This document shows positions 19,727 to 63,964 of a DNA stretch of 64,000 bases, piece after piece; the stretch's first letter is position 1; every line of letters starts with the position of its first letter. The position numbers and the translations under genes were made by a program. The stretch lies in contig MHAK01000016.1 in NCBI GenBank assembly GCA_001802945.1, positions 6,803 to 70,802 on the forward strand, read 5' to 3'. Source of the DNA: Ignavibacteria bacterium RIFCSPLOWO2_12_FULL_56_21. GTDB lineage: Bacteria; Bacteroidota; Ignavibacteria; UBA10030. The notes beneath the pieces were generated by a model, which saw only the letters and a program-made list of their open reading frames with translations, made no database searches and was not told the origin of the DNA.

Positions 19727-19729
19727 GCC

Positions 19730-20911: not shown

Positions 20912-20920
20912 GGCGGCAGA

Positions 20921-20966: not shown

Positions 20967-20995
20967 CGAGCGCCTCGCGCTTTGCGAAGACCACC

Positions 20996-21730: not shown

Positions 21731-21896
21731 CGGCAGTCGAGAGGCGTGAGATGTGAAAGGTGAATCGTCAATCGACAATCGAAAACCCCCACCCTCCTTC
21801 TCTCCCATTTCCAAGACTCCCCCATTGTCTCCTCTCGCCCGTGAGAATCTCTTCTGAGAATCTCTTCCTCTGGCTGATTCCAACTGTGACACCCTT

Positions 21897-21912
21897 TGGC
21901 ACGCTTTCTGCC
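21897..21912 (+). promoter_or_regulatory. candidate sigma-54 promoter upstream of the sensor kinase/activator pair
   Basis: TGGCACGCTTTCTGCC has GG/GC at exact spacing, with -12 reading CTGC instead of TTGC. It lies 20-27 nt upstream of the GTG starts at 21933/21939. Confidence 0.5.
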
Positions 21913-21932
21913 CCTCAATTCTACAGCGAGGT

Positions 21933-34612: not shown

Positions 34613-34684
34613 CGCAGAGGTAAATTGCGTGAGGTGCATAGGCTCAACTTCCCATTCATTCCCCACCTCCTGAAGGAAGCCACC

Positions 34685-38365: not shown

Positions 38366-38499
38366 AAATATGAGATGGAAAGGCAGGTGATTGCAGGAAA
38401 CGTTCCTATTCTTGAGATTTCAGCATAGCGACCCGCAGAATTCGTTCAAATTGAGGGGCGATCAACTGACATGACGTGGAGGCATAGGAATTGCGAAGA

Positions 38500-45272: not shown

Positions 45273-45273
45273 G

Positions 45274-47298: not shown

Positions 47299-48215
47299 CA
47301 CCTGAAACTGGCGGACAAACTCCGCCACCGGTCGCGAAGACTGCGCGCCGGACGCCGCGCTTCGTTGAAGCGGGCTGGCACGAACCGCCGCGGCTCCAGT
47401 ACGTTCGATTCTCGCGACTGAATCGGGTACTCCATGTCGTGATGATCGTCAGTTTCCTCAGTCTGGCGCTCACGGGCATGTCGTTGAAATTCTCATACAC
47501 GCAATGGGCCGTGGTTCTGTCGCATATGTTCGGTGGGTTTGAATCGGCCGGCTATGTCCACCGCTTTGCAGCGACCGTCATGATCATCATGTTTATCATT
47601 CACATCGTCGACCTCTTCCGCAGAAAGAACCGGGAGTTTGGGACATGGAAGGCGATGCTGACGGGACCTCATTCGATGGTATTCAACGCAAAGGACCTCG
47701 CCGATTTCATCGGCAACATGAAGTGGTTTGTGGGTAAAGGGCCCCGGCCGCAATATGGCCGCTGGACCTATTGGGAGAAGTTCGACTACATCGCTGTGTT
47801 CTGGGGGATGACGGTCATTGGATCGACCGGACTGATGTTATGGTTCCCGGAGATCTTCACCCTCGTCCTTCCAGGCTGGCTCATCAACGTTGCAACGATC
47901 ATCCACAGCGACGAAGCGTTGCTGGCGACCGGCTTTATTTTCACTGTGCACTTCTTCAATACTCATCTCCGCCCGGAAAAATTCCCAATGGACACCGTGG
48001 TGTTCACGGGGAGGATGGATGTGGAGGAACTCATGGACGATAAGCCTGCCGAGTACAATGAGCTTGTACGAAACGGCACGCTCCAGGAAAACCTCGCACC
48101 TGCATATCCTCCAATCGTCGAACGGGTTATCAGGGCCTTTGGCTGGACGGCCGTGACGATCGGGATCTGCGTCGTGGTGATGATCATCTATGCAATGGTC
48201 TTTGCATACAGATAA
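47295..48215 (+). CDS. membrane b-type cytochrome (FdnI/HydC/PhsC-like), paralogous to the C-terminal half of 43083-45272
   Basis: ATGA overlap with the 19-heme gene. Helices with conserved His (VLHVVMIVSF, VHRFAATVMIIMFIIH, TIIHSDE, FTVHFFNTH). Confidence 0.75.
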   Translation: MTPETGGQTPPPVAKTARRTPRFVEAGWHEPPRLQYVRFSRLNRVLHVVMIVSFLSLALTGMSLKFSYTQWAVVLSHMFGGFESAGYVHRFAATVMIIMFIIHIVDLFRRKNREFGTWKAMLTGPHSMVFNAKDLADFIGNMKWFVGKGPRPQYGRWTYWEKFDYIAVFWGMTVIGSTGLMLWFPEIFTLVLPGWLINVATIIHSDEALLATGFIFTVHFFNTHLRPEKFPMDTVVFTGRMDVEELMDDKPAEYNELVRNGTLQENLAPAYPPIVERVIRAFGWTAVTIGICVVVMIIYAMVFAYR

Positions 48216-48227: not shown

Positions 48228-50264
48228 ATGCCACTGATCGATTCGAAAACGGGCGATACCCGAAGGACATATTCAATCGCACAACTGGAATCCGCGGCGC
48301 GGCTGATGCGCGCCTATGACCTCGTGTGCCTCGCGGCCGCCGGCTCAGGCCATTCCGGCGGGACGCTCTCGATCATGGATATCGCCGCCGCGCTCTACCT
48401 CAAGGAAGCGCGTCTCGACCCACAGCAACCCGACTGGAAGAACCGCGACCGCATCGTCTGGTCGGTCGGTCACAAAGCGCCGAGCCTATATATCGCGATG
48501 GGAATGGCCGGATTCTTCGACCCGCGCGACGTTGTAACACTCAGGAAACTCGGCAGCCCGTTTCAAGGTCATCCGCATTGGCTGAAGATACCGGGAATCG
48601 AGGCATCGACCGGATCGCTCGGACAAGGACTGAGCATCGCCGTCGGTATGGCGCTCGGCCTTCGGCTTGACAAGTCCTCATCGCGCGTGTACTGCATCAT
48701 GGGAGACGGTGAACAGCAGGAGGGTCAGATCTGGGAAGCCGCGATGGAAGCAGGCCATTATCAGCTCGACAACCTCTGCGCCATCATTGACCGGAACCGA
48801 TTGCAAATCGACGGCAGGGTCGATGAAGTCATGAAGGTCGAATCCCTCCGTGCGAAATATGAAGCGTTCGGGTGGAACGTCGTCGAGACGGACGGACACA
48901 CGATGGACCGCATCGTCGACGCGTTCAATCAAGCCCGCTCCGTCAAAGGTCGTCCAACCGTCATTCTTGCCGAGACGGTAAAGGGAAAAGGGGTCGACTT
49001 CATGGAGAACGTCGCCGGCTGGCACGGCAAATCTCCGTCGATGGAAGAATTGACACGCGCACTGGGTCAACTGGGACTTCCCGAGCCACTGGACGTGGAT
49101 GCGATGATGAATATCGCGCGGGAGTTCCAGAAGAAGGCGGACCAGGCCATGGCGAAAAAAATGCCCGCGTTTGGAAAAGCTACCTGGTGGAATGCGGACG
49201 AAATGATGCGGGTCGACATGCAGCCGACGCGCAAAGGGTTTGGGACCGCATTGAAAAGACGTGGCGGAGATGCGCGCATCGTGTGTCTTGGCCTTGACAT
49301 TTCGGGCTCGATCACGATCAGCGATTTCTACGCTTCGAATCCCGAGCGCAAGGACCGATGGTTCAGCATGGGCATTGCGGAGCAAAGCGCGATCTGTGTT
49401 GCCGCCGGCCTCGCCCGCGAAGGCAGGATTCCCGTGCTGGGTACGTACGGAACATTCGCCGCAGGCCGATGTCTCGACCAGATCCGCACGACTGTCTGTT
49501 ATGGCGAACTGAACGTGCTCATCGCCGGGGCCCACGGAGGTGTCTCGGTTGGACCCGACGGCGCAACGCATCAGTCTCTCGAAGATCTGTTCCAGATTTG
49601 CGGACTTCCGAACATCCGCGTTTCTGTGCCGTGCGACAACGTCGAAACGGAGAAGGCGACAGAACACATGCTGTTCAACGCGGTCGGGCCGAAATACATC
49701 CGTTTTGCCCGCGAGGCGACTCCTGTGGTGACGACGGCGGCGACCCCCTTCAAATTCGGAGTGGCGAACATCATCCGATTCCGCGGCATACAGCCGAGGT
49801 TCATCGACGCTTTCGAGACGCGGCTGGCATCGGAGGTCCCGAATGAATCGGAGCATCTTTCCATCATCGCCTGTGGACCCATGGTCCCGGAAGCGATGCG
49901 GGCTGCCGTCATTCTGAAGAATGTGTTCGGCTATGAGACGCGCGTGATCAACATGCACACGCTGAAGCCATTGGACGCGGCTGCGGTCATCCGCGGTGCC
50001 CGGGAAACCGGCGTTGTCATAACGGCTGAAGAGCATCAAATCGGCGGACTCGCCGACCGGGTATGCCGGATCATCACGGAATCATACGAGCTTTACCGCC
50101 GCCCCGTCATCACGGGGTCGATCGGCGTCAACGACCGCTTCGGCGAGTCGGGGGCGCCGTGGGAATTGATCAAAGAATTCGGCGTCAGCGCTGAACACAT
50201 CGCGCAGAAGGCGCACGAATTGGTGCAGTTGAAAAGCGAGGAATTGCTGAAACCGATGGCGTAA
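48228..50264 (+). CDS. tkt: transketolase (single polypeptide)
   Basis: 678 aa. GSGHSGGTLSIMDI, GSLGQGLSIAVGMA, MGDGEQQEGQIWEA and the C-terminal pyrimidine-binding region FSMGIAEQ. Confidence 0.9.
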   Translation: MPLIDSKTGDTRRTYSIAQLESAARLMRAYDLVCLAAAGSGHSGGTLSIMDIAAALYLKEARLDPQQPDWKNRDRIVWSVGHKAPSLYIAMGMAGFFDPRDVVTLRKLGSPFQGHPHWLKIPGIEASTGSLGQGLSIAVGMALGLRLDKSSSRVYCIMGDGEQQEGQIWEAAMEAGHYQLDNLCAIIDRNRLQIDGRVDEVMKVESLRAKYEAFGWNVVETDGHTMDRIVDAFNQARSVKGRPTVILAETVKGKGVDFMENVAGWHGKSPSMEELTRALGQLGLPEPLDVDAMMNIAREFQKKADQAMAKKMPAFGKATWWNADEMMRVDMQPTRKGFGTALKRRGGDARIVCLGLDISGSITISDFYASNPERKDRWFSMGIAEQSAICVAAGLAREGRIPVLGTYGTFAAGRCLDQIRTTVCYGELNVLIAGAHGGVSVGPDGATHQSLEDLFQICGLPNIRVSVPCDNVETEKATEHMLFNAVGPKYIRFAREATPVVTTAATPFKFGVANIIRFRGIQPRFIDAFETRLASEVPNESEHLSIIACGPMVPEAMRAAVILKNVFGYETRVINMHTLKPLDAAAVIRGARETGVVITAEEHQIGGLADRVCRIITESYELYRRPVITGSIGVNDRFGESGAPWELIKEFGVSAEHIAQKAHELVQLKSEELLKPMA

Positions 50265-50287
50265 GCACTGCCGGGGCCGGTATTTTT

Positions 50288-50377
50288 GAACCGCCAAGAA
50301 GTACGTTTGGAGTACATCATGCTCCGGATTCACAATTTCACAAAATCTCTCTTGGCGACCTTTGCGACTTGGCGGTC
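50288..50377. repeat. family B tandem-word hairpin
   Basis: GAACCGCCAAGAAG ... CTTGGCGACCTTTGCGACTTGGCGGTC, between tkt and the aminotransferase gene. Confidence 0.6.
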
Positions 50378-50423
50378 ATCTTTTCTCCTAAACTCTCGGG
50401 CTCTCTACAGTTAGAGGTGTTCT

Positions 50424-51659
50424 ATGAAGATTGCACAACGCATGAATCGACTCGGAACGGAAACGGCGTTCGATGTTCTGACAGAAGTGAATGCTCTTCG
50501 GTCGCAGGGTCGGGACATCATCAGTCTTGCCATCGGTGAGCCTGCTTGCGATACCGCCGACTACATCAAACAGGCGGCGAAAGATGCCCTCGACCTGAAC
50601 ATGACCCACTACGGTCCTTCGCAGGGGCTTCCCGCGTTTCGCGAAGTCATTGCCAAGCACGTTGCGGAAACGCGGAACATTTCCGTGTCTCCCGAAGAGA
50701 TTGTGGTCGTTCCGGGGGGAAAGCCAGTGATCTTTTTCAGTATCCTCGCATGCATCGAAGAAGGAGACGAGGTGGTGTACCCGCTCCCCGGATATCCGAT
50801 CTACGAGTCGATGATCCGGTTTGCGGGAGGAATTGCCGTCCCGCTCAGGTTGCGCGAGGAACATGGGTTCAGCTTCGATGTGCGCGAGTTACGCAAGAGC
50901 GTAACGGACCGGACGCGCATGATCATCGTCAATTCTCCGCAGAATCCGACCGGCGGAATCATTCCCAAATCGGACCTGCATGAGATATCGGAATTGGCCC
51001 TTCATCACGACCTGTGGGTCCTCTCCGACGAGATCTACAGGCGTATCACGTATGAGACTCCCGCCGAAAGCGTCAGTCAGTTTCCAGGTATGAAGGAGCG
51101 GACGATCATACTCGACGGACATTCCAAAACGTATGCCATGACCGGCTGGCGCGTGGGGTACGGAGTCATGCCGCGGGCACTTGCCATGCATGTCACTCGG
51201 CTCATGACGAATTCAAACTCGTGCACGGCGACGTTTTCGCAGCACGCAGCGATGGTCGCGATGACCGGTCCGCAGGAGAGTGTGACGCGCATGGTGGCCG
51301 ACTTTCGCCGCCGCCGAGACCTGATCGTCGACGGTCTCAACGGTATCGAAGGGTTTTCCTGCCGGAAACCGATGGGCGCATTCTATGCTTATCCGAATGT
51401 GACGAATGCGTGCAGGACCCTGGGGCTGAAAGATTCGCGCATGCTTCAGCAATACCTTCTGCAAGAGGCGGGAGTTGCGGTTCTCGGTCAGCAATGCTTC
51501 GGAACGCGGTTGCCCGAAGACAATCAGGAATACATTCGTTTCTCGTATGTTTCGTCGGATGAGGACATTCGCGAGGCATTGCGGCGGGTAAAAAATTCTC
51601 TTTCCGATTCCGCACACGTTTCATCTTTCTTGGCGCGCCAGCCTCAGGCGGTAGCATAA
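50424..51659 (+). CDS. class I/II PLP-dependent aminotransferase (aspartate aminotransferase-like)
   Basis: 411 aa. LAIGEP, NSPQNPTGG, SKTYAMTGWRVGY (PLP lysine), and RFSY near the C-terminus. Confidence 0.9.
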   Translation: MKIAQRMNRLGTETAFDVLTEVNALRSQGRDIISLAIGEPACDTADYIKQAAKDALDLNMTHYGPSQGLPAFREVIAKHVAETRNISVSPEEIVVVPGGKPVIFFSILACIEEGDEVVYPLPGYPIYESMIRFAGGIAVPLRLREEHGFSFDVRELRKSVTDRTRMIIVNSPQNPTGGIIPKSDLHEISELALHHDLWVLSDEIYRRITYETPAESVSQFPGMKERTIILDGHSKTYAMTGWRVGYGVMPRALAMHVTRLMTNSNSCTATFSQHAAMVAMTGPQESVTRMVADFRRRRDLIVDGLNGIEGFSCRKPMGAFYAYPNVTNACRTLGLKDSRMLQQYLLQEAGVAVLGQQCFGTRLPEDNQEYIRFSYVSSDEDIREALRRVKNSLSDSAHVSSFLARQPQAVA

Positions 51660-51837: not shown

Positions 51838-53370
51838 ATGACGAATGACGTCGGGGCCACGCTCGAAGAGCTGAAGAGAAAGCGGAAGTTCCCAAACGCG
51901 TTCTATAATCCGATCACGCTATTCGGACTGGGTCTCAGCCTTCTCAGTCTTGCGCTCATTTCCTTCCTGCTCGTCCTCGATTATTTCTCCGCGACATCCA
52001 AGCCGTATGTCGGCGTCATAGCGTTCATCCTGTTGCCTCTTGTCTTCATCGCCGGAGGCCTCACGTCATTCTGGGGGGCTTGGAGGTATCACCGGCACCT
52101 GGCGAAGAAAGGGATCGTTGTTTATCATCTGCCCCGGGTCGACCTCAACGACCCGCGTCATCTTCGGGCGACGCTGTTTAGCTTGGCGGCAGTACTCGCC
52201 GTCGGAGGTACGGCGGCATTCACGAGCTACCAAGCGTATGAATACACAGAATCGGACGAGTTCTGCGGCACCACGTGCCACAGCGTCATGAATCCCGAAT
52301 TCACCGCGTATCAATTCTCGCCCCATGCACGCGTAGGATGCGTGGAATGTCACATCGGCTCCGGGGCCGACTACTTTGTGAAGTCGAAGCTTTCCGGCAG
52401 CTATCAGGTGTATGCGGTCGCGTTCAACAAGTATCCCAGACCCATTCCCACCCCCATTCAAAACCTGCGTCCTGCGCAGGAAACATGCGAACAATGCCAT
52501 TGGCCGAAAAATTTCTTCAGCGAAAAACTGCACAAGAATTCGTATTTCCTGTCGGATGAAAAGAACACAAGATGGGACCTGGACCTGCTGATGAAGATCG
52601 GCGGCGGGAACATTGAGGTGGGGCCAACGTCCGGCATCCACTGGCACATGAACATCGCCAACGTGGTGACCTACGGGACGGTCGATTCGTCGCGGCAGAC
52701 GATCGCCTGGGTGAAGTCCCGCGATTCCGCAGGAGTGGAACGCATCTACCGCAATACGGATCAGCCGCTGTCGGCCGAAGATTCGAGCAAGGTCATGGTC
52801 CGGAAAATGGACTGCCTCGACTGTCACAACAGGCCTTCGCACGCCTACCATCCCCCGGCCATGTCGGTGAACACCGCCATGACGTACGGATGGATCGACC
52901 CAAGCCTTCCGTATGTCAAGTCGGTGGCCGTCGACGCGCTCGACCGGGGTTATACGACGAACACAGTGGCGATGGACAGCATTCGTGTATTGTTGTCGGA
53001 CTACTATGAAGAAAAGTATCCCGACATTGCGCGCCGCGACCGTGGAAAGATCGAACGGACCATCCAGGAAGTACAAAAGATCTACTCAAGGAACTACTTC
53101 CCGGAGATGAAAGTCGAGTGGCGGAAGTTTCCCGATAATATCGGCCACCTGTTCTATCCGGGATGCTTCCGTTGTCATGACGGAAAGCATGTCGACGCGG
53201 AAGGGAAGTCGCTGTCCCGGGAATGCAATGTGTGTCACACCATCCTGGCCCAGCAATTCCAGGACGACAAGCTGAGACTTTCTCTCGGCGGCGTAGAGTA
53301 TCGCCACCCCGTCGATATCGGCGATGCGTGGAAAGAAATGAACTGCAACGATTGCCATAACAGCCGGTAA
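51838..53370 (+). CDS. membrane-anchored NapC/NirT-like multiheme cytochrome c (6 CXXCH + 1 CX3CH)
   Basis: Three N-terminal TM helices, then ESDEFCGTTCHSVM...HARVGCVECH (NapC/NirT-like signature). Further CXXCH motifs: CEQCH, CLDCH, CFRCH, CNVCH, CNDCH. Confidence 0.8.
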   Translation: MTNDVGATLEELKRKRKFPNAFYNPITLFGLGLSLLSLALISFLLVLDYFSATSKPYVGVIAFILLPLVFIAGGLTSFWGAWRYHRHLAKKGIVVYHLPRVDLNDPRHLRATLFSLAAVLAVGGTAAFTSYQAYEYTESDEFCGTTCHSVMNPEFTAYQFSPHARVGCVECHIGSGADYFVKSKLSGSYQVYAVAFNKYPRPIPTPIQNLRPAQETCEQCHWPKNFFSEKLHKNSYFLSDEKNTRWDLDLLMKIGGGNIEVGPTSGIHWHMNIANVVTYGTVDSSRQTIAWVKSRDSAGVERIYRNTDQPLSAEDSSKVMVRKMDCLDCHNRPSHAYHPPAMSVNTAMTYGWIDPSLPYVKSVAVDALDRGYTTNTVAMDSIRVLLSDYYEEKYPDIARRDRGKIERTIQEVQKIYSRNYFPEMKVEWRKFPDNIGHLFYPGCFRCHDGKHVDAEGKSLSRECNVCHTILAQQFQDDKLRLSLGGVEYRHPVDIGDAWKEMNCNDCHNSR

Positions 53371-53381
53371 GGAGTTCGCGC

Positions 53382-53837
53382 ATGACCGAATCAACCGCGG
53401 AAAAAGTTCAGGAAGAGCGTCGCGATCTCCTGAAGTGGCTCCTGGGAGGGAGCCTGGTCGCCTGGATCGCTTCGGTCGCGTACCCCATTCTGGCATATCT
53501 ACAACCCCCCAAGCAGAATGAAGTTGCTGTACAGAGCATAAAAGCAGGAAAACTTTCGGAGATCGAACTGGATTCCGGTAGGATCGTAAAGTTCGGCACT
53601 AAGCCGGTTATTCTCATCCGCACCAACACGAACGAGCTCAAGGCTTTTACCGCCACGTGTACGCATCTCGACTGCACGGTGCAATACAGCAAGGAGAAGG
53701 GCATCATCTGGTGTGCGTGCCACAACGGGCAGTACGACCTCACGGGTCGGAATATCGGCGGACCGCCCCCAAAACCTCTGGAGGAATTCAGGGTCCTCAT
53801 TCAAGAAGACGAGGTCCTAATCTCGAAAAACACATGA
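53382..53837 (+). CDS. Rieske [2Fe-2S] protein
   Basis: Tat-like [11 protein letters not shown] with a TM helix. Cluster boxes CTHLDCTV and [17 protein letters not shown]. Confidence 0.9.
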
Positions 53838-54910
53838 AGACGATCTGGGAGAAGTTGTATAAGTGGATCGACGAGCGGGTAGACCTTGCGGACCTCGTCG
53901 AGTTTATGGGAAAAAAATACGTTCCCATCCATCGACATTCCATTTGGTACTACTTCGGGGGTGTGACGCTCTTCCTCTTCCTGATCCAAGTGGTGAGCGG
54001 GATCCTTCTCCTGATGTACTACAAAGGGAGTGAAGATCTGGCATTCGAGAGCATCCAGTTCATCATGTCGAAAGTCCAGTTTGGCTGGCTCATCCGGTCC
54101 ATCCATTCATGGGCCGCGAATCTGTTTATTCTTGCGGCCGTCATTCATATGTTTAGCGTGTACTTTACAAAGGCGTACCGAAAACCACGCGAGATCACTT
54201 GGCTCACCGGCATGTTCATGCTCTTCCTCGGGATGGGGTTTGGCTTCAGCGGATACCTCCTCCCATGGAACGAACTCGCATTCTTTGCCACCAAAGTCGG
54301 AACAGATATCGCAGGAGCTGTGCCCATCGTCGGTAAGCCGATCATGGTGTTGCTCAGGGGGGGAGAAGATGTCACGGGCGCCACGTTATCACGCATGTTC
54401 GGATTTCATGTCGCCATTTTCCCCGGGATCTTCGCGGTTCTTCTGGGGATTCATCTCGTTCTAGTGCAGCGCCAGGGTATGAGCGAGCCCATCGGACATT
54501 CTGAGTCGGGTGGGGACCTCAAAACAATGCCGTTCTTCCCGAATTTCCTTTTGCGGGACCTGTTGCTTTGGTTGATTGTGCTGAACGTGCTGGCGATTCT
54601 CGCCGTCCTCTTTCCGTGGGAATTGGGGGTGAAGGCCGATCCGTTCGCTTCCGCACCCGCGGGCATCAAACCTGAGTGGTACTTTTTGTTCATGTTCCAA
54701 TCGTTGAAATATATCCCTGCGGAAGTTCTGTACATCGAAGGGGAGATCTTGGGGATCCTACTTTTTGGCCTGGCCTTTGCGTTGTGGACAATGGTTCCTT
54801 TTTGGGATCGGAAGAGCAACTTCGGCCAAGAGAACAAGGTTGTCACCTATGTGGGCCTCTTTGTTGTGGCGTTTGTCATTGCACTGACGATCTTGGGGTG
54901 GACAGCATGA
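53834..54910 (+). CDS. cytochrome b of a Rieske/cyt b complex (b6-like part fused to subunit IV-like part)
   Basis: [19 protein letters not shown], and the PEWY Qo motif ([11 protein letters not shown]). ATGA overlaps at both ends. Confidence 0.9.
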
Positions 54911-56382
54911 GTATGAATACACGTCGGATTCGCGCCGCTTCCATTTTCGCTCTCATTCTGTTCCATCCACTGGTTTCGTTTTCACAGGACCAGTGCCGCA
55001 CTTGCCACGAATCCATCGAGGATCCACGCGCCCTCGCGTTTGCGGCTGATATTCACGCCTCAAATGGGATATCGTGTGCCGACTGCCACGGAGGCGACCG
55101 CACCAAAGAAGATATGGAAGAAGGGATGAGCGCCGGAGCGGGATTTCGAGGTGTCCCGGTCGGAGATGCGATCTCCGATGTGTGTGCCTCGTGCCACAGC
55201 GATGCTTCGAAGATGGTACACGTCTACAAGTCTACTCTGCCTCTTGATCAGGTCGAAGCCTTGAAGGCGTCTGTACACGGCCAGCAGTCAGTCTCAGGCA
55301 GGAGCCGTATCGCCCAATGCACCTCCTGCCACGGAGCGCACGGTATTCTCCCCAGATCGAACAGAAAATCGCCCGTCCACCCGGCGAACGTTCCGACAAC
55401 GTGCGCACGATGCCATTCCAATGCCGGCTACATGACGGCGTATGACCCATCGATGCCCGTCGATCAATATCAGAAGTATCGCAGCAGCGTCCATGGAAAA
55501 TTGAATCAACGGGGTGACTCGAAGGTGGCGGAGTGCGCAAGCTGCCACGGAAGCCACGACATCCTGGCGGCGAAGGATGTCCGGTCCAAGGTCTATCCGA
55601 TCAACCTTCCCGCAACGTGCGGTTCGTGCCATGCCGACGCGGTGTACATGCGCGGATACGGAATCGGCACGGATCAGTTGAAAGAGTACTCGAAAAGCGT
55701 CCACGGCGTTGCCCTTTTGCAAAAGCACGACATCGGTGCCCCAGCCTGCAACGACTGTCACGGTAATCACGGAGCGGTCCCTCCTGGAGTGGAATCGATA
55801 TCGAAGGTGTGCGGATCATGCCATGCCCTCAATGCCGACCTGTTCTCGAAAAGCCCACACAAGAAGGCTTTCGATACACGTGGTCTGCCAGAATGCGAGA
55901 CCTGCCACGGGAACCATGAAGTTGTAAGGACAACGGACCAGCTTCTCGGGGTCGGTAAGGAAGCTGTCTGCGCATGGTGCCACAAAGACGATACAAAGTC
56001 GCGTGGCCACATCGTTGCCGCCACCATGCGTCAACTGGCCGATAGTCTGGCCGACGCAGAGGATTCTGCGCAGCGGCTTCTCAACGATGCAGAGCAAAAA
56101 GGAATGGAGGTCGGCGAGGCCCGGTTCGCGGCCCGGAGTATCAGGCAGGCCCGCCTCGAGTCAAGGACAAAAGTCCACTCCTTCCAGGAATCACAATTCA
56201 GAGATGTTGTGGAAAAGGGACTGTCAGCCGCCAAAGACGTTTCGGCACAAGCAGAGGAGGCCATCGGAGAGTACCACTTCCGTCGTTGGGGATTGTTGAT
56301 AGCCTCATTCGCCATCACCCTTCTGGCGGTCTCGCTATATCTGCTGATTCGCAGGATTGAGAGTCGACAACGAGCAAAGTGA
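54907..56382 (+). CDS. 11-heme cytochrome c with C-terminal coiled-coil and TM anchor
   Basis: Signal peptide, 11 CXXCH motifs counted, and C-terminal helix [21 protein letters not shown]. Confidence 0.85.
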
Positions 56383-56599
56383 GGATATTTTTCCTTTCCT
56401 TGCGACTCTCCTTACATATGTCAGTTTCCGGTCCTTGGGAACCGCGGTATTCCACTGTCATATGTGGACACCTGCCGTCGTTGAACTGCCGCAACAACCC
56501 GCCCGCCGTATCTTTCGATCTCCCGCGTTTTCCCACCGGATGGCATGATAGTTGAAGGTCGAACGAGAATCTTATATCTCATACGTGAGGTGAATACCC

Positions 56600-56854
56600 A
56601 TGGAAGAGCTCCATCGCGGTACCTCCGAGAGGCTCATCTTCTTCTTTCAGCTCTCTAGCGTCCTCCTGATTTGGCTGTTTGTCATTGCCATCACCCTCTG
56701 GATCTCCAGGCTCATCGTTCTCTCCCTTGAGCTCAATGATGCCCCCGGGGCCTCTGTGGCCATTAGCCTCGTAGCCATTCCCGTATTTATGACACTGGCT
56801 GGAATTCTTACGTATGTCTTCGTCGGATTACAGAGGGGGAAGAAAAAAGTCTGA
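56600..56854 (+). CDS. small hydrophobic membrane protein (84 aa)
   Basis: SD GAGGTGA. Two to three predicted TM helices. No family recognised. Confidence 0.45.
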   Translation: MEELHRGTSERLIFFFQLSSVLLIWLFVIAITLWISRLIVLSLELNDAPGASVAISLVAIPVFMTLAGILTYVFVGLQRGKKKV

Positions 56855-56877
56855 ATCACCTTAGGAGGAGAATCGAC

Positions 56878-58035
56878 ATGGTACTTCGGTTGCTCCAATT
56901 GTCCGTGTTGGCGTTTGTGACGCCCGCTATGTTCGGCCAGGATTTCGAATTGCCGACAGATCCGCTCGAAGGGAGGATCGTGTTTGAGGAGAAACAGTGC
57001 ATCTCGTGTCATTCGGTGGGGGGGCTTGGGGGAACCGCCGGACCGGATCTCAGCAGAGACTACTTCTTCGGCAGCGGACTTGAACTAGCCTCGATACTCT
57101 GGAATCACACGCCGGCGATGAATCGGAAGTTTCGCCAGCTTCGCATGGATCGACCGAAGCTGTCGGAAAAAGAAATGTTGGACCTCCTTGGTTTCCTCTA
57201 CTATCTCCGGTATCTGGGTGAGCCTGGAAGTGTGTCAAGCGGGAAGCGGCTGATCGAATCGAAAGGTTGTCTGTCGTGTCACACGATTGGCGGCGGAAGC
57301 AAGGAAGGAGTTCCGGATTTCAGGCAGATCCCGCGATTTTCAGCACCGCTTAACATGGTCCAAGCGATGTGGAACCATGCTCCCACGATGCAGAAGAAGT
57401 TCGAGTCGAACAAAGTAGCCTACCCAACGATGAGCGGTGAAGAAGCAGTTGATATCGCCGCCTTTCTGCAACAGGCCAGCACGGCTCCCACGGAGCAACG
57501 ATTGTCACCCGGGAATCCCCGGAACGGACGCGTGTTGTTCGATAAAAAGAAATGCTCAACCTGTCATGTTGGTGAAGGGAAACGCCGAAGGATCGAGACG
57601 GGACTAGTGAAGATGGACCTGCGGAAGGGCGTGACCGAGGTTGCCAGCTCGATGTGGAATCACGGGAAGGATATGTTCGATTTGATGAAGCGAGAATCGA
57701 TAGAATGGCCCATGCTGGAGGGAAACGACATGGCCGACATCATCGCGTACATCTACTTCCTTGGTTTTGAGGACAAGCCGGGCCAGAGCGAGGAGGGGCT
57801 TCGGGTGTTCAGAGAAAAAGGATGCTTCGAATGTCACGAAAGAAGCGGTAGTCAGGCCGCATTGCTAGCGTCGTCCGGTTCGCTCAACTCCCCGTTCAAT
57901 ATGGTGCAATTGATGTGGAATCATGCCATTGAGATGGAAGATTTGCTCATCACTCAAAACAAGCGGTGGCCTGAGTTGTCTTCCAAAGAAATGCGGGACC
58001 TGTACGCCTATCTGCAGGGGAAGACGAAGAAATGA
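56878..58035 (+). CDS. periplasmic cytochrome c with four tandem class-I monoheme domains
   Basis: Signal peptide. Four repeats of CxxCH ... (M)WNHxxxM: CISCH/WNHTPAM, CLSCH/WNHAPTM, CSTCH/WNHGKDM, CFECH/WNHAIEM. Confidence 0.85.
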   Translation: MVLRLLQLSVLAFVTPAMFGQDFELPTDPLEGRIVFEEKQCISCHSVGGLGGTAGPDLSRDYFFGSGLELASILWNHTPAMNRKFRQLRMDRPKLSEKEMLDLLGFLYYLRYLGEPGSVSSGKRLIESKGCLSCHTIGGGSKEGVPDFRQIPRFSAPLNMVQAMWNHAPTMQKKFESNKVAYPTMSGEEAVDIAAFLQQASTAPTEQRLSPGNPRNGRVLFDKKKCSTCHVGEGKRRRIETGLVKMDLRKGVTEVASSMWNHGKDMFDLMKRESIEWPMLEGNDMADIIAYIYFLGFEDKPGQSEEGLRVFREKGCFECHERSGSQAALLASSGSLNSPFNMVQLMWNHAIEMEDLLITQNKRWPELSSKEMRDLYAYLQGKTKK

Positions 58036-58598
58036 ACATTCCGGAGAGAACAAGTGCTCGCGCGGACTCCCGCCTGGAGGTTCGTGAGGGAATGCGGATC
58101 GGCGCTGGTTTGGTTATCGTGATGATGGGAGGAGCGTTGTGCATCCTGCATGCTTCCGGCTGCCGCGAACGCAAAGTCGAGCAACCGATCGACTACAGCC
58201 ACAAGACCCACGTTGGGACGGCGGGAATTGCCTGTGTGGATTGCCACCAATCGGTCGAATCGGGGATCCGCGCAACCATCCCGCCGCTGGAAACGTGCAA
58301 AGGCTGCCATTCGGATACTCCGCTGACGGAATCGCCGGAAGAGAAAAAGCTTCTGAACTACTTGGCCAATGGGGGAGAGATTCCATGGAATAAGGTGTAC
58401 CAGGTGCCCGACCATGTCTACTTCTCACATCGGCGCCATGTGTCACGAAGCAAGGTCACCTGCCAGGAATGTCATGGGGATATAGCTTCATTTGTGAATG
58501 CCGTTTCCTTCCAGTTCCTTCCTGTGACGATGGAAAACTGCATGAAGTGCCACAAGGAAAGAAATGTGACGAACGACTGCCTTTCCTGTCACCGCTAA
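58032..58598 (+). CDS. membrane-anchored pentaheme cytochrome c (ActA/QrcA/c3-family-like)
   Basis: ATGA overlap with the upstream gene. TM helix GAGLVIVMMGGALCIL. Five CXXCH motifs: CVDCH, CKGCH, CQECH, CMKCH, CLSCH. Confidence 0.85.
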   Translation: MNIPERTSARADSRLEVREGMRIGAGLVIVMMGGALCILHASGCRERKVEQPIDYSHKTHVGTAGIACVDCHQSVESGIRATIPPLETCKGCHSDTPLTESPEEKKLLNYLANGGEIPWNKVYQVPDHVYFSHRRHVSRSKVTCQECHGDIASFVNAVSFQFLPVTMENCMKCHKERNVTNDCLSCHR

Positions 58599-58608
58599 CG
58601 GATGCGCC

Positions 58609-61053
58609 ATGGAAATTCGCCGACGAGAGTTCTTGAAGATTGCCGCAGGAATGACAGGAGGAGCACTCCTGGGCAGCCATGGACTGGACCCGATGTTTGC
58701 TGTTCCGAAAGAAGTTATCGAACGGATGAAATTCGGTCCTCGAGTCGAGACGTGGAAGAACACTACCTGTCGCTTGTGCCCCGGAGGATGTGGAATGAGC
58801 GTCCGGTTGATCGACGATGTTCCGATCTCGGTCAAAGGCAATCCCCTGAATCCGGTGAACCGAGGTGGATTGTGTCCGCTCGGCCTGAATGCAGTCCATT
58901 CATTGTATCACCCTGATCGCGTTCAGGGGCCCCTCATCCGGAAAGGTTCCCCCGGGTCCGGCTCATGGGAAAAGACATCCTGGCAGGAAGCTTTCAAGGT
59001 GATCTCAGGGAAGTTGAACCAACTCAGACAAGAGGGAAAATCCCAGCACGTGGCCTTCCTCGGCTCAGACGAGTATGGGTTCATGAGGGATCATATCCAG
59101 AGATTCGCCGCGTCATATGGAACCCCGAACTATTTTCTCTATTCGAAGGACTCGAACAAGAGGGCGGCGAACTTCCTCTCGCATGGAAATCGGCGCGCAC
59201 CGGCGTATGACATTGTCAACTCCAAACTGGTGGTCACCTTTGGGGCGAACATCCTCGAAGAGGGGCCATCTCCCGTATACTATACAAAGTTGTACAGTCA
59301 TCACAATGAACAGCAAACCCGCTATATCCACATTGACTCGAGGCTGAACCTGACAGCCGCCAATGCCGACCGTTGGATTTCCATCCGGCCGGGGACGTAC
59401 GGTGCCCTTGCGCTCGGTGTTGCGTACGTGCTCATCCGCGAGGAACTCTATGACCAGGATTTCGTCAGAGCGCACACGCACGGCTTTGACGACTGGATGG
59501 ATGCTCGAGGCAGGCGACACGTCGGCTTCAAGTCCACCGTTCTCAGCGACTACTATCCGGAGAGAGTCCAGGAGTTCACCGGAGTGCCGAGCAGTGTCAT
59601 CCTCGAACTTGGCCGGGAACTTGGCAACTCTCGTCCCTCAGTCGCATTGTGCGATCAGGCAGCCCTCAATCACACGAATGGGACGCTCACGGCAACGGCA
59701 GTGAACGCCCTGAATGCGCTCTTGGGCAATTATGAGAAAGAGGGGGGGGTCTACTTCGTCGATGAGCCGCCCTTCGCGAGCTTCGGCGCAGCACCGATGG
59801 ATGGCCGATCCGCTCAGGCGATGACCCAGCCGCGAGTAGGAATGCCTGTGGAAGCGTTCCTTCCGCTCCAAGAGTGCTCGGTGAAAAGCTTCAGCGAAAA
59901 CGTTCTCTCAGGGAGACCATATCCCATCGACGTGCTTTTTCTCTACGGAGGCAATCCGCTCTTTCAGAGCGTGCACCACAAGAAGTTTGCCCAGGCGCTC
60001 CAGAAGATCCCCATGGTCATCAGTTTCGACTCTCTCCTCACGGAGACCGGTGAATTCGCTCACTACGTCCTGCCGGACCATCATTTCTTTGAGGCCTGGG
60101 ATATTGTCTCGAATGTGGAAAATGTTGGATTCACACATGTTGCAATTCAGCAACCTGTCATGGCGCCGATGTATGACACCAGAGCTACGGGCGACGTGTT
60201 GATAGAACTCGCACGCCTTGCGGAAGGTCGGGTTGCGGCGTCATTCCCGTACGGTTCGTACGACGAGGGCATTCGCCGCGCTTTGAGAGGCGTGTTCGAA
60301 TCAGGATCCGGTGCGATCGCGAGTGAAGGGGTTGGGAGTCGATGGCTGGAGTTCCTGAAACAGCGGGGATGGAGGATCGACAGATATTCATCGTTCGAAG
60401 AGTTCTGGGACAGATTGACCCGGTATGCCGGATGGTGGAATCCGATACGATCAAAGAAACATTTACGCTCACTGTTCCAGACACCCTCGGGGAAGTTTGA
60501 GTTCTACTCACAGACGCTCGAGAACATGATACAAGCTATTCCGACCGAGTCACGCGACAAAGCGCTCCGCCGGGCAGGCATATCCGCAGGTGGAGACACA
60601 GCCTTCCTCCCGCACTATGAACCTGTCTCCGGCGAATCGGATCTCCCGCTTTCCATGATCACGTACCAATCAATGTCCGTAGGCGATGGACGAGGGGCCA
60701 CACTCCCCATGATGCAGGAGTTGTTCGGACATGCGGTGAATCGACATTGGGATTCATGGGCGGAGATCCATCCCTTGACGGCCCAGCAGTATCTGGTGAA
60801 GGATGGTGAGTGGATCCTGGTGCAGTCGTCCGAAGGGACGCTGAGGATCCGCTCCAAGGTCACAGAAGGAGTGATGCCGAACGTTGTTGCCATACCGTTC
60901 GGATTGGGTCACACATCCGGAGGAAGGTACGCACGAGGTCATGGAGTCAATCCACATTCCATCTTGGAAGGAAAGGAGGACGGGCTAAGTGGCCGCGAGG
61001 CGATTCAGGCGACCCGAGTGCGCGTGGTTGCTGAAGGGCGGTCAGAATTTTGA
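58609..61053 (+). CDS. Tat-exported molybdopterin-oxidoreductase-family (MopB/CISM) catalytic-type subunit
   Basis: Tat signal RRREFLKIAAGMTGGALLG. FS0 [4Fe-4S] motif CRLCPGGCG...GGLCPLG. 814 aa. Substrate unknown. Confidence 0.9.
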   Translation: MEIRRREFLKIAAGMTGGALLGSHGLDPMFAVPKEVIERMKFGPRVETWKNTTCRLCPGGCGMSVRLIDDVPISVKGNPLNPVNRGGLCPLGLNAVHSLYHPDRVQGPLIRKGSPGSGSWEKTSWQEAFKVISGKLNQLRQEGKSQHVAFLGSDEYGFMRDHIQRFAASYGTPNYFLYSKDSNKRAANFLSHGNRRAPAYDIVNSKLVVTFGANILEEGPSPVYYTKLYSHHNEQQTRYIHIDSRLNLTAANADRWISIRPGTYGALALGVAYVLIREELYDQDFVRAHTHGFDDWMDARGRRHVGFKSTVLSDYYPERVQEFTGVPSSVILELGRELGNSRPSVALCDQAALNHTNGTLTATAVNALNALLGNYEKEGGVYFVDEPPFASFGAAPMDGRSAQAMTQPRVGMPVEAFLPLQECSVKSFSENVLSGRPYPIDVLFLYGGNPLFQSVHHKKFAQALQKIPMVISFDSLLTETGEFAHYVLPDHHFFEAWDIVSNVENVGFTHVAIQQPVMAPMYDTRATGDVLIELARLAEGRVAASFPYGSYDEGIRRALRGVFESGSGAIASEGVGSRWLEFLKQRGWRIDRYSSFEEFWDRLTRYAGWWNPIRSKKHLRSLFQTPSGKFEFYSQTLENMIQAIPTESRDKALRRAGISAGGDTAFLPHYEPVSGESDLPLSMITYQSMSVGDGRGATLPMMQELFGHAVNRHWDSWAEIHPLTAQQYLVKDGEWILVQSSEGTLRIRSKVTEGVMPNVVAIPFGLGHTSGGRYARGHGVNPHSILEGKEDGLSGREAIQATRVRVVAEGRSEF

Positions 61054-61298
61054 AGAACGAACTAGCGTCGCCTCCAGAACGGAAGCTCGTAATGAAAGCG
61101 ATCCCCGACCCTTCTCCGGCCGCGTTCATATCGCAGTTATGAGTGGGTAGGGAGCAATGCAGAGGGTGGACACTCGCCGAATCGAAATGCTGATCACCAG
61201 TCCGCGTGCCCTTATGAACGATCGGCGTGGGCGAGCCTTGCGGATCATACTCTCTCATTCGAAAGCGTTTTCAACAACACGTTAGCAGGAGAGGACCA

Positions 61299-61988
61299 AT
61301 GCCGAAATGGGCGATGGCCATAGATTTGGATAAGTGCACGGGATGCGAATCCTGCATGATCGCATGTAAGGTGGAGAACAACGTGGCGATCGTCGATCCG
61401 GAGCAAGCACAAGCAGGCCGGGTGATGTACTGGATGGATATGATGACTGCGTACGAATCCGAGGATACCCAGGTCGTGAGGAGAATTGTGCCAAAGCCTT
61501 GTTTCCACTGCGATGAACCTCCTTGCACCGTTGTTTGTCCGGTGGGCGCCACCTATCGCAATCCCGAAGGAATCGTGGCCCAGGTGTACCATCGGTGCAT
61601 TGGGTGCCGGTATTGCATGGCAGCGTGTCCTTATACAGCCAAGGTCTTCAACTGGTACGCACCGAAATGGCTGGAGGATTCGGCTTGTCGCCCGAATCCG
61701 GACGTCTCACTTCGAATGTCCGGCGTCGTCGAGAAATGTTCGTTCTGTTCTCATCGTTTGCAGCAGATTAAAGAGATCGCGGACCTCGAAGGAAGGAGGA
61801 TCGAGGACGGAGAGTATGTGACGGCGTGCCAAGAGAACTGCCCGACAGACGCCATTGTATTCGGAGATATCGAAGACAAAGATAGCTCGGTCTACAAGCT
61901 TTCCAAAAGCTACCGTGTCAAACGATACATGGATGATCTAGATGTGAAACCGAAAGTGTTCTATCTCTCACGTAGAACAACGGAATAG
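61299..61988 (+). CDS. 4x[4Fe-4S] ferredoxin-type subunit (PsrB/ActB2/QrcC-like)
   Basis: CTGCESCMIAC, CFHCDEPPCTVVCP, CIGCRYCMAACP and CSFC...CQENCP. ATG 61299 follows SD AGGAGAGGA. No signal peptide. Confidence 0.9.
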   Translation: MPKWAMAIDLDKCTGCESCMIACKVENNVAIVDPEQAQAGRVMYWMDMMTAYESEDTQVVRRIVPKPCFHCDEPPCTVVCPVGATYRNPEGIVAQVYHRCIGCRYCMAACPYTAKVFNWYAPKWLEDSACRPNPDVSLRMSGVVEKCSFCSHRLQQIKEIADLEGRRIEDGEYVTACQENCPTDAIVFGDIEDKDSSVYKLSKSYRVKRYMDDLDVKPKVFYLSRRTTE

Positions 61989-62003
61989 AGGGATGCTTGG
62001 ACA

Positions 62004-63308
62004 ATGGATAAAGACGAGATCCTGTTCAAACCGATCTATGAAACCGGAAGGGGCTTTTACATAACCTTCGGCATCCTCGCGGTGATTCTCCTGTGGGCCC
62101 TTGCCATGTACATCAACCAGGTCATGGTTGGACTCGGGCCGACAGGAATGAACCAGCCTGTCACGTGGGGATTCTATATCGTGAATTTCGTGTTCTTCAT
62201 CGGTATCAGTCATGCCGGAACGCTGATCTCTGCCATTCTTCGACTGTCCAAGGCCGAGTGGCGTCGCCCGATCACGCGCATGGCAGAAGTGATCACCGCG
62301 ATCGTACTTGTGATCGGGGGACTGCACCCGATTTTGGATCTCGGAAGGCCGGACCGGATGATGAACCTGCTGGAATCTGGCCGGCTACAATCTCCGCTGC
62401 TCTGGGATGTCACGAGCATCACTGCGTATTTCACGGCGAGTACGGTCTACCTCTATCTTCCCATGATTCCCGACATCGCGCGGATCCGTGACAGAGGGGG
62501 GAAGCTAAAGTGGCTATACACGTTCATGGCCTGGGGATGGCAGGGAACGGAATATCAACAGAAGGTTCTGAACCGGGCCATCAATATCCTCATGGTGATG
62601 GTGATTCCGATCGCGATCTCTGTCCACACGGTCATTTCTTACATCTTTTCGATGACCCTGCAGCCGGGATGGCACAGCACGATCTTCGGACCGTATTTTG
62701 TCGTGGGAGCCATCTTCTCGGGTATTGCAGCACTGATGATAGTCATGATGACATTTCGCAAGGTGTATCATCTGGAGACGTACCTGAAAGAGATCCATTT
62801 CCGTTACTTGAGTACATTGCTGTTGATCATGTCGCTGATCTGGTTCTACTTCACCTTCTCCGAGTATCTGACGGGCGTCTTCGGATCTGAGGCGCATGAG
62901 ATGGAAGTCATCAAGTACAAGTTCTCAGGTCCGTTTGCTCCGTTCTTCTGGGGAATGGTCCTCTGCAATTTCGTTCTTCCGGTAACCATTCTCAGTTTCA
63001 GAAAGTTCCGCACGATGACGGGGATATTTGTGGCCTCCGTTGCAGTTGTTATCGGAATGTGGCTTGAGCGTCTCATCATTGTGGTACCGTCGTTAGCAAG
63101 TCCGAGGATGGATGTGCCACTCGGGATCTACGTGCCGACGATCCTTGAATGGTCCCTGTTCGCGGGCGGCATAGCAGTGTTCGTCATGGGGTTTATGCTT
63201 TTTTCGAAGTTCTTTCCAATCATTTCAATATGGGAGATTGAGGAGGGGAGGAGTCATGCGGCGAAAGAGGTTGAAGAACGTATCGCCAGCTATTTGCCCG
63301 GACCATGA
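62004..63308 (+). CDS. NrfD-family membrane subunit, long (434 aa, ActC/QrcD-like size)
   Basis: Highly hydrophobic. The N-terminus GFYITFGILAVILLWALAMYINQ ... FFIGISHAGTLISA is typical of the NrfD/PsrC/ActC family. Confidence 0.9.
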   Translation: MDKDEILFKPIYETGRGFYITFGILAVILLWALAMYINQVMVGLGPTGMNQPVTWGFYIVNFVFFIGISHAGTLISAILRLSKAEWRRPITRMAEVITAIVLVIGGLHPILDLGRPDRMMNLLESGRLQSPLLWDVTSITAYFTASTVYLYLPMIPDIARIRDRGGKLKWLYTFMAWGWQGTEYQQKVLNRAINILMVMVIPIAISVHTVISYIFSMTLQPGWHSTIFGPYFVVGAIFSGIAALMIVMMTFRKVYHLETYLKEIHFRYLSTLLLIMSLIWFYFTFSEYLTGVFGSEAHEMEVIKYKFSGPFAPFFWGMVLCNFVLPVTILSFRKFRTMTGIFVASVAVVIGMWLERLIIVVPSLASPRMDVPLGIYVPTILEWSLFAGGIAVFVMGFMLFSKFFPIISIWEIEEGRSHAAKEVEERIASYLPGP

Positions 63309-63424: not shown

Positions 63425-63964
63425 ATGAAGTCACTTTCGTTTCTCCTGATCGCCGGAGTGTTCCTGATCACCGGGACCGAGGCGGTTGCGCAGAACAAAT
63501 ACATCGGCGCTAAAATGTGCGGTATGTGTCATCGCACCGATAAACAGGGAAAGCAGTTCGATATTTGGAAGGCGAGCAAACACGCGAAAACGTTCGATGT
63601 TCTCTCCAGCCCCAAAGCGGCGGAGATTGCGAAGGCAAAAGGTATTGCCAACGCCGCTGAAGCGAAGGAATGTCTCGAATGTCACGTCACGGTGTCGGAT
63701 GCCAAGTTGATGGACAAGTCATTCGACATGAAGGAAGGAATACAGTGCGAAGCGTGTCACGGTGCGGGGTCCGCGTACAAGACGATCACGCTCATGAAGG
63801 ACCACGCAAAAGCCGTGGCGGCCGGAATGTCCGATTTTTCCGTCAAGGGTGCGGCTGAAAAACGCTGCAAGACATGCCACAATGAAAAGAGCCCGACATT
63901 CAAGGGATTTGAGTTCGACAAAATGTGGGCGAAGATCGAACATAAGGTACCCAAAGCAGGGTAG
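63425..63964 (+). CDS. periplasmic tetraheme cytochrome c (c554-like)
   Basis: Signal peptide MKSLSFLLIAGVFLITGTEAVAQ. Four CXXCH motifs: CGMCH, CLECH, CEACH, CKTCH. The internal ATG with SD GAGGAAAGG is preferred to the ORF-track start at 63305. Confidence 0.8.
   Translation: MKSLSFLLIAGVFLITGTEAVAQNKYIGAKMCGMCHRTDKQGKQFDIWKASKHAKTFDVLSSPKAAEIAKAKGIANAAEAKECLECHVTVSDAKLMDKSFDMKEGIQCEACHGAGSAYKTITLMKDHAKAVAAGMSDFSVKGAAEKRCKTCHNEKSPTFKGFEFDKMWAKIEHKVPKAG

Follow-up and report, generated by a model that had tools for sequence, protein, structure and literature searches.

Gene content of the locus

We analysed a 64,000-nucleotide (nt) stretch of DNA from Ignavibacteria bacterium RIFCSPLOWO2_12_FULL_56_21 (assembly GCA_001802945.1, contig MHAK01000016.1, positions 6,803 to 70,802), hereafter the window, to which all positions below refer unless a related locus is named. 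At 51838-58035, the window encodes on a single strand a heptaheme cytochrome, a Rieske [2Fe-2S] protein, a cytochrome b, an 11-heme c-type cytochrome that we call MHC11, an 84-amino-acid (aa) membrane protein and a four-domain class-I cytochrome c, followed by a molybdopterin module and a tetraheme cytochrome, c4K. The subject of this study is the core formed by the Rieske protein, cytochrome b and MHC11, and the relation of the surrounding cytochromes to it. An earlier note on this DNA, made from the letters and their open reading frames (ORFs), had described the gene order, the heme counts, the ATGA overlaps and a 217-nt gap, all of which we confirm on the sequence. The overlaps join Rieske to cytochrome b, cytochrome b to MHC11, and the four-domain cytochrome to the pentaheme gene of the module (58032-58598), and the 217 nt follow the MHC11 gene, for which an alternative ATG exists at 54913. 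The spacing between the heptaheme and Rieske genes is 11 nt, not the 12 given before.

The window proteins were annotated by searches against Pfam, NCBIfam (with its cut-offs) and the sequences of solved structures. For synteny, they were compared with six-frame ORFs of the 80 best-scoring related genomes, which yielded 80 loci (L numbers below); the denominators are 74 loci with room for the core, 68 with room for the gene downstream of MHC11, and 65 for the gene upstream of Rieske. Motif conservation was assessed on 59-80 homologues per window protein, recovered from other genomes, and since the motif sets of the window are kept across these homologues, they are not the product of chance.

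A conserved Rieske, cytochrome b and MHC11 core

Gene content bears out the earlier description of a Rieske/cytochrome b pair with an 11-heme protein in the usual place of the c-type subunit. Neither a cytochrome c1 gene nor a cytochrome f gene was found at the window locus, and the gene after cytochrome b is that of MHC11. The Rieske protein has an N-terminal anchor containing an RR pair and two cluster boxes, CTHLDC and CACHNGQY, both of which are kept in 75 homologues, and its matches to PetC-type NCBIfam models stay under cut-off (PetC 68 vs 250). Its box II, CACHNGxY, is of the 'G-Y' type that Kao and Hunte rank as medium potential, which would suit a menaquinol-oxidising enzyme in need of an acceptor of fairly high potential.

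Cytochrome b has seven predicted transmembrane helices and, on direct reading of the sequence, heme-ligand histidine pairs in helices B and D with b6-type spacing. The PEWY quinol-oxidation motif and the WYYFGG segment recur in 74 of 75 homologues. The cysteine that binds heme c_i is missing, a tyrosine standing in its place (YFGG vs the CxGG of b6). The top matches among solved structures are cytochromes b6 (expect value, E, 1e-59), and the NCBIfam PetB model scores 238.6, under its cut-off of 325. With both cluster boxes, the four heme-ligand histidines and the PxWY motif in place, the two proteins belong to the Rieske/cytochrome b class, and the domains and motifs of this core are intact and conserved.

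MHC11 starts with a signal peptide and ends in a helical stalk and a membrane-spanning helix (residues 460-484). Its 11 CXXCH motifs recur in 80 of 80 homologues, among which 10 further histidines are invariant and several methionines conserved. Because there are only 10 spare invariant histidines for 11 hemes, at least one heme is possibly not bis-His ligated, and such a heme might serve as an entry point of higher potential. Among solved-structure sequences, MHC11 matched octaheme nitrite reductases and NrfA alone, and these only along a short segment (E 2e-4). When a single genome was searched for each species, MHC11 relatives turned up in 424 species-level genomes, the best 80 of which are all Ignavibacteriota-type metagenome-assembled genomes (MAGs). 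Very many homologues share about 60% identity, and the named ones are listed as 'cytochrome c3 family protein' of Ignavibacteriales, Ignavibacteriae or Bacteroidota. A search for cultured Ignavibacterium carriers among cluster members of the proteins from L040 and L076 yielded sequences from MAGs and metagenomes only. The cytochrome b sequence of the window is present unchanged in several aquifer MAGs, including GCA_001802245.1, and the window DNA itself occurs in groundwater, soil and sediment metagenomes.

The synteny survey separates this core from its neighbours. The Rieske gene lies directly 5' of the cytochrome b gene in 73 of 74 loci, and the Rieske-cytochrome b pair directly 5' of MHC11 in 73 of 74 as well, making the three genes an invariant unit. 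The other genes that the earlier note had drawn into the same arrangement proved either variable in position (the heptaheme gene) or tied to the molybdopterin module (the 84-aa and four-domain genes), as detailed below.

Natural fusions in a second lineage

An exhaustive search of representative sequences for the closest relatives of cytochrome b outside the phylum (47-57% identity) returned, among others, several long proteins. In P0121/P0271, which carry the name Thermoanaerobaculia, and in P0126/P0273, cytochrome b is followed by a multiheme domain that ends in an MHC11-type stalk and anchor and shares 35-43% identity with MHC11 across 330-410 residues. All four have an even number of transmembrane helices beyond PEWY, which places the fused heme domain in the periplasm. 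One long protein, P0123, was considered and rejected as a fusion: its junction is a poly-lysine stretch and its odd helix count would put the hemes in the cytoplasm, so that it is probably a frameshift artefact.

Scanning metagenomes with P0126 as query identified at least 553 related stretches, of which 80 loci were kept (L090-L169); they represent a second lineage, which is uncultured. In 28 of these 80, cytochrome b and the MHC11-like domain form a single stop-free ORF (e.g., L091, 6001-9000), encoding a polypeptide of about 1000 residues whose MHC11-like domain has 8-9 hemes; in the remainder they are separate neighbouring genes. A Rieske gene adjoins the fused or split pair in those loci of L090-L169 that are long enough to inspect, nearly always directly upstream. 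Such pairs of fused and split forms are good evidence for physical association of the two proteins. Given the adjacency in 73 of 74 loci, the ATGA coupling, a C-terminal anchor of the kind that c1 and f possess, and the fusions to cytochrome b, we propose MHC11 as a subunit of the complex, occupying the gene position of c1 or f. It is the sole firmly supported c-type partner; of the three that had been placed in one unit before, only MHC11 behaves as a subunit. The features discussed here and in the following sections are collected in Table 1.

Table 1. Positions of the core genes, their neighbours and the differing strain ends (window coordinates, except in the last row, which refers to the loci named)
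Feature	Position	Strand	Details
Rieske [2Fe-2S] subunit	53382-53837	+	151 aa; PF00355, E 1.3e-12
Cytochrome b, fused b6 + subunit IV	53834-54910	+	358 aa; PF00033, E 5e-49; PF00032, E 8e-12
MHC11, 11-heme c-type cytochrome	54907-56382	+	491 aa; 11 CXXCH
Predicted ImcH-family heptaheme	51838-53370	+	510 aa; PF03264, E 3.9e-13
84-aa protein, two transmembrane helices	56600-56854	+	
Four-domain class-I cytochrome c	56878-58035	+	385 aa; four CXXCH
ActA-like pentaheme	58032-58598	+	
Molybdopterin subunit	58609-61053	+	Tat signal; FS0 cysteine motif
4Fe-4S subunit	61299-61988	+	
ActC-like NrfD subunit	62004-63308	+	
c4K, c554-type periplasmic tetraheme cytochrome	63425-63964	+	PF13435, E 2.5e-17
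CbcL-like fusion, 13-heme + cytochrome b561-type domain	43083-45272	+	PF01292 (Ni_hydr_CYTB)
19-heme cytochrome	about 45229-47298	+	from heme motif count
Separate b-type membrane cytochrome	47295-48215	+	
Differing strain ends past the window	L001-L006, about 20543-20995; L087, 11031 onward		

The heptaheme upstream of the Rieske gene

The heptaheme cytochrome had been described as NapC/NirT-like. Its seven heme motifs, three helices and PF03264 match stand; one of the motifs, however, is an atypical CX3CH (CGTTCH at residue 143) beside six CXXCH, and the protein is better placed in the ImcH family. The protein has three N-terminal hydrophobic helices (segments 23-54, 52-82 and 111-129), the pattern of one CX3CH and six CXXCH is kept in 58 of 59 homologues, and the NrfH structure 2j7a is matched at E 4e-6. 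As defined in print, ImcH is 495-519 aa long and has a membrane domain of three N-terminal helices, next to which a CX3CH motif is followed by six CX2CH (PMC6295460); the window protein agrees with this definition in every item (PMC4251993, PMC6295460). In a preprint on purified Geobacter ImcH, the conserved residues named are E127, K173, Y188 and Q179, the last of which ligates heme 1 distally, and H137 is the heme-1 histidine. Residues E138, K184, Q190 and Y199 of the window protein stand at the same offsets from the heme-1 histidine, and equivalents of K184 and Q190 occur in 59 of 59 Ignavibacteriota homologues. We therefore assign the protein, as a predicted quinol oxidase, to the ImcH family by the published definition and by residue offsets.

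The position of the ImcH-like gene is less constant than that of the core. Among 65 loci, it lies directly 5' of the Rieske gene in 47, with one gene between in 8 and relocated in 1, and it was undetected in 9, one of which (L040) is an N-masked gene and not a true absence. In eight genomes (L015, L018, L022, L023, L038, L041, L049 and L077), an extra 4Fe-4S gene stands between the ImcH-like and Rieske genes; its product is about 30% identical to the iron-sulfur (FeS) subunit of the window's molybdopterin module, and the window has no gene in that place. In Geobacter, imcH (GSU3259) is monocistronic (PMC4251993), whereas the window gene sits only 11 nt upstream of Rieske. Geobacter ImcH acts as an autonomous menaquinol oxidase, electroneutral according to a recent report, that donates to periplasmic cytochromes, and ImcH has so far been implicated in quinol oxidation only (PMC6295460). 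The ImcH-like protein is thus a frequent, not an obligate, neighbour of Rieske, and would be a parallel quinol oxidase of the same pathway rather than a subunit of the complex.

The four-domain cytochrome and the molybdopterin module

The four class-I-like domains of the four-domain cytochrome span about 90 residues each and are 21-32% identical among themselves; neither this cytochrome nor the 84-aa protein matched any solved structure. Their distribution follows the molybdopterin module. After the 84-aa gene comes the four-domain cytochrome gene in 17 of 17 loci, and after the latter come molybdopterin genes in 15 of 15; both are missing from about 50 loci that have Rieske, cytochrome b and MHC11 but no module. 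This co-occurrence, together with the absence of both wherever the module is lacking, indicates that the two proteins are components of that module, contrary to the earlier view of the four-domain cytochrome as a Rieske/cytochrome b partner. The module directly follows MHC11 in 18 of 68 loci and is missing from about three quarters; it is an optional insert that separates MHC11 from c4K in roughly one lineage out of four.

By its matches, the module at 58032-63308 is a hybrid of alternative complex III (ACIII) and ArrA/Psr-type enzymes. Against solved ACIII structures, the pentaheme matches ActA (E 2e-25), and the product of the only NrfD-type gene matches ActC (E 6e-71); there is no second such gene (ActF). 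For the molybdopterin subunit, the strongest matches are ArrA (E 1e-75) and thiosulfate/polysulfide reductase (Psr/Phs; E 1e-51), with ActB far behind at E 3e-11. ACIII thus shares its ActA pentaheme and ActC membrane subunit with the window module; it has a fused, cofactor-less ActB and an ActF, whereas the module has separate molybdopterin and FeS genes and one NrfD, and a four-domain cytochrome c in place of the monoheme ActE. The closest NCBIfam names of the module subunits are QrcA, QrcB and QrcC, and membership in Qrc was rejected since every score lies under the family cut-off. The hybrid may work as a reductase, or it may represent an intermediate stage from which the relation of ACIII to molybdoenzymes can be read; it bears on how the former arose from the latter.

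The link to the adjacent molybdopterin cluster that had been noted from the ATGA overlap with the pentaheme gene holds, and the neighbourhood recurs: in the second lineage, ACIII-like genes again lie beside Rieske/cytochrome b (L093, L105, L107 and L156), and in L105, L107 and L156 a four-domain cytochrome or an 84-aa protein follows NrfD, in ActE- and ActD-like positions. The neighbourhood is therefore a recurrent link of two complexes, and it gives no evidence for the four-domain cytochrome as a subunit of Rieske/cytochrome b.

c4K and the wider supercluster

In 68 loci, the first gene after MHC11 is a c4K homologue in 33, the 84-aa gene in 18, a CcmF-like gene in 10 and an unrecognised gene in 7. 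Tetraheme c4K, which the earlier note did not mention, is thus the commoner downstream neighbour, and in most long-form loci it follows the inserted molybdopterin module. It is likely a soluble electron carrier.

In relatives that have no insertion, the upstream part of the locus comprises a CbcL-like protein (13 hemes and a b-type domain), often a 19-heme cytochrome with a b-type cytochrome, and the ImcH-like protein. The downstream part runs from Rieske, cytochrome b, MHC11 and c4K to a porin-like protein, a 14-heme cytochrome of about 406 aa, lipoprotein cytochromes with 4-7 hemes and a CcmF-like protein. By position and size, the c4K, porin-like and 14-heme genes of these relatives would correspond to the pcc cluster of Ignavibacterium album, which consists of the periplasmic cytochrome IALB_1840, the porin-like IALB_1839, IALB_1838 (400 aa, 14 hemes) and IALB_1837 (PMC4245776). 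In the nearest relative, L007, whose MHC11 is 90% identical to that of the window, porin-like and 14-heme genes follow the molybdopterin module. ImcH and CbcL are established quinol oxidases of extracellular electron transfer (PMC4251993, PMC6295460). Taken together, the core and its neighbours in relatives have the gene content of an extracellular-electron-transfer supercluster, a wider setting that the earlier note did not describe.

The CbcL-like genes (43083-48215) are kept upstream of the core in most related loci. In the window they form two CbcL-type units side by side, one fused (13-heme and b561-type) and one split (19-heme and b-type), and they are separated from the ImcH-like gene by transketolase and aminotransferase genes (48228-51659). 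The same pair stands at the equivalent place in L010, L014, L016, L024, L068, L076 and L083, and is absent from most loci. At the other end, strains with identical cluster proteins differ just after c4K, where either a Y1 transposase or arginine-biosynthesis genes follow, which suggests rearrangement at the c4K end of the cluster.

Several further genes were noted around the cluster. Directly upstream of the CbcL-like gene, at 38491-42759, lies the gene of a 1422-aa hybrid sensor kinase that may regulate the cluster; the protein carries GAF, multiple PAS, HisKA, HATPase and receiver domains. In L085 (1-3900), the region adjoining the CbcL-like gene encodes a 539-aa protein with one CXXCH, a putative fragment of a CheY-type response regulator and two smaller ORFs. 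At 18154-24934, GCV_H-like, 4Fe-4S, NrfD-type and again GCV_H-like genes precede those for a HAMP histidine kinase, which contains a single CXXCH, and for a sigma-54 response regulator. A 599-aa protein at 34625-36424 ends in a type IX secretion system sorting domain (a weak Pfam match), which fits a cell envelope of the Bacteroidota/Ignavibacteriota type.

Relation to known complexes

Rieske/cytochrome b complexes with multiheme subunits are already known; the MHC11 family is large, conserved and unnamed. The closest published analogue is the Geobacter ExtMNOPQS complex (Cbc6), with Rieske ExtO, cytochrome b ExtP, subunit-IV-like ExtQ and 12-, 10- and 4-heme cytochromes, whose host respires extracellular acceptors and whose function is uncharacterised (PMC5877670). 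Like the window locus, Ext pairs a Rieske/b6-type core with multiheme cytochromes in place of c1 or f. Membership in Ext/Cbc6 was nevertheless rejected, each score of the window proteins falling under the family cut-off (ExtP 203.5 vs 290, ExtQ 24.3 vs 150, ExtN 21.3 vs 200, ExtS 33.2 vs 100). The window also differs from Ext in that cytochrome b and subunit IV are fused, in that MHC11 belongs to an unrelated family with a C-terminal anchor, and in gene order and neighbours (ImcH-like, CbcL-like and c554-like tetraheme genes in the window).

With cytochrome b6f and the Rieske/b complexes of green sulfur bacteria, the window core shares the b6-type histidine spacing, PEWY and the RR-anchored Rieske protein, and a fusion of b6 and subunit IV has been reported from Chlorobi too. 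It departs from b6f in having no cytochrome f, no heme c_i cysteine and no split between b6 and subunit IV, from both systems in having an 11-heme subunit in place of f or of a soluble acceptor, and from cytochrome bc1 in having no c1 subunit. The Rieske/b complexes of anammox bacteria (Kuenenia) contain multiheme subunits, NAD(P)-binding FeS subunits and HAO-like proteins. By description, the latter two kinds of partner are absent at the window locus. The anammox complexes, which are also mentioned in PMC5600118, set a precedent for joining Rieske/cytochrome b to multiheme c-type proteins and other unusual partners.

Within the phylum, Liu et al. (2012) described the genome of I. album as having ACIII only and no cytochrome b-Rieske complex, and the only such protein that Kao and Hunte note from I. 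album is a cytochrome b of the GPWY type with a fused c7 domain. That protein is distinct from the PEWY cytochrome b of the window. Dibrova et al. (2017) mention a clade, G', of long cytochromes b in 'large conserved operons of unknown function', and the present family may already have been seen there. The Ignavibacteria literature describes the pcc cluster and homologues of ImcH and CbcL in the phylum; among open-access papers and bioRxiv preprints, we found no mention of a Rieske/cytochrome b complex beside them, and neither a description nor a name for the Rieske/cytochrome b/MHC11 arrangement, consistent with the earlier remark that the set of partners was not a recognised one.

Proposed electron path and alternatives

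Gene content, motif conservation, synteny and fusions are direct observations; from here on, we infer that the complex assembles and runs a Q cycle, and likewise its heme potentials, which way electrons flow and what accepts them outside the cell. We lean, with somewhat better than even confidence, towards Rieske, cytochrome b and MHC11 forming one Q-cycle menaquinol:multiheme-cytochrome c oxidoreductase that would feed an extracellular electron chain. Menaquinol would be oxidised at the PEWY site of cytochrome b. From the Rieske cluster, the first electron would enter the MHC11 heme chain, MHC11 being anchored next to cytochrome b through a C-terminal helix in the manner of c1 or f, and the second would return through the two b hemes to the quinone pool, the cycle building proton-motive force. 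From MHC11, electrons would reach periplasmic carriers, c4K being the commonest neighbour, and in relatives would continue through the porin-like protein, the 14-heme cytochrome and the lipoprotein cytochromes to the outside of the cell. The ImcH-like and CbcL-like proteins would provide parallel quinol-oxidase entry points to the same pathway.

Several observations weigh against this proposal. Multiheme cytochromes are usually of low potential, which would make transfer from the Rieske cluster uphill. An AlphaFold2 model of MHC11, built on a 17-sequence alignment, reached a mean predicted local distance difference test score (pLDDT) of 62.5 and is confident solely at the C-terminal helices (366-490), and a Foldseek search of this model against the PDB gave nothing under E 0.4, that is, no match to a known fold. 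The porin-cytochrome conduit is not adjacent in the window genome, where c4K is followed by arginine-biosynthesis genes, and the extracellular link is consequently drawn from relatives, whose porin-like protein (about 430 aa, secreted) has no Pfam match. Promoter and terminator scans of the cluster performed no better than on shuffled sequence, the 217-nt gap showed no significant fold (z = -1.2), and the cluster sequence was absent from the only RNA runs from the source site. The direction of electron flow is not readable from sequence.

The missing conduit lends some weight to an alternative that we consider unlikely, namely that the Rieske/cytochrome b/MHC11 complex serves periplasmic reductases, such as the ArrA/Psr-like module or a nitrite or nitrous oxide reductase, rather than export. 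In the window, its neighbour is the molybdopterin module, ACIII-like genes lie beside Rieske/cytochrome b again in an unrelated lineage (the four loci named above), and Rieske/b complexes that supply periplasmic reductases have been proposed for Caldithrix and are reported for Wolinella. The module, however, owns a quinol-interacting NrfD subunit and is missing from about three quarters of the loci, and the majority arrangement leads directly to the c4K, porin-like and 14-heme genes.

The sequence by itself does not say which way electrons flow, and the path from the periplasm outwards could also be read backwards, with electrons from Fe(II) or a cathode entering through the conduit and either reducing quinone through a reversed Rieske/cytochrome b complex or passing to high-potential class-I cytochromes and oxidases. 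CbcL/MtoC/MtrH-type proteins are known from metal reducers and metal oxidisers alike, and the four-domain protein, a class-I cytochrome, belongs to a high-potential type. We nonetheless give uptake only a small chance: ImcH has so far been tied to the oxidation of quinol, no Cyc2-type or oxidase genes were seen at the locus, and the literature connects Ignavibacteria mainly with Fe(III) reduction and anodes.

The poor model of MHC11 and the lack of direct evidence for contact would also be compatible with MHC11 being merely a conserved neighbour, Rieske/cytochrome b then donating directly to a soluble carrier as in green sulfur bacteria. The adjacency in all but one of 74 loci, the ATGA coupling, the anchor resembling those of c1 and f, and the repeated natural fusions of an MHC11-like domain to cytochrome b make this quite improbable. 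Least probable of all is the super-complex of the earlier note, in which a single Rieske/cytochrome b complex would have the ImcH-like protein, MHC11 and the four-domain cytochrome c alike as subunits or dedicated partners, for the tight spacing in the window (an 11-nt gap and ATGA overlaps on a single strand) and the adjacency of the ImcH-like gene in most loci are set against the absence of both the four-domain cytochrome and the 84-aa protein from every locus that lacks the molybdopterin module, the loci in which the ImcH-like gene is undetected (9 of 65, one N-masked), relocated (1) or one gene away (8), and the function of Geobacter ImcH as an isolated protein.

Implications for extracellular respiration

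How energy is conserved at the inner membrane during respiration of minerals and electrodes is an open question, and Geobacter ImcH was recently reported to be electroneutral. If the proposed oxidoreductase is real, a Rieske/cytochrome b complex with its own multiheme subunit would add a proton-motive step to extracellular electron transfer. We tentatively extend this to the Ignavibacteriota and the lineage with fused proteins, where a Rieske/cytochrome b complex with an 11-heme wire might act as the energy-conserving 'high gear' in a trio of inner-membrane quinol oxidases, together with the CbcL-like and ImcH-like enzymes encoded beside it, bringing a proton-motive Q cycle into extracellular electron transfer; this would be a route of energy conservation without counterpart in the Geobacter and Shewanella models. 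With 424 species-level genomes and a fused form in at least 553 metagenome stretches, the family offers a defined target for comparative bioenergetics. Should the proposal hold, it could help explain the abundance of Ignavibacteriota in iron-rich sediments, aquifers and anode biofilms.

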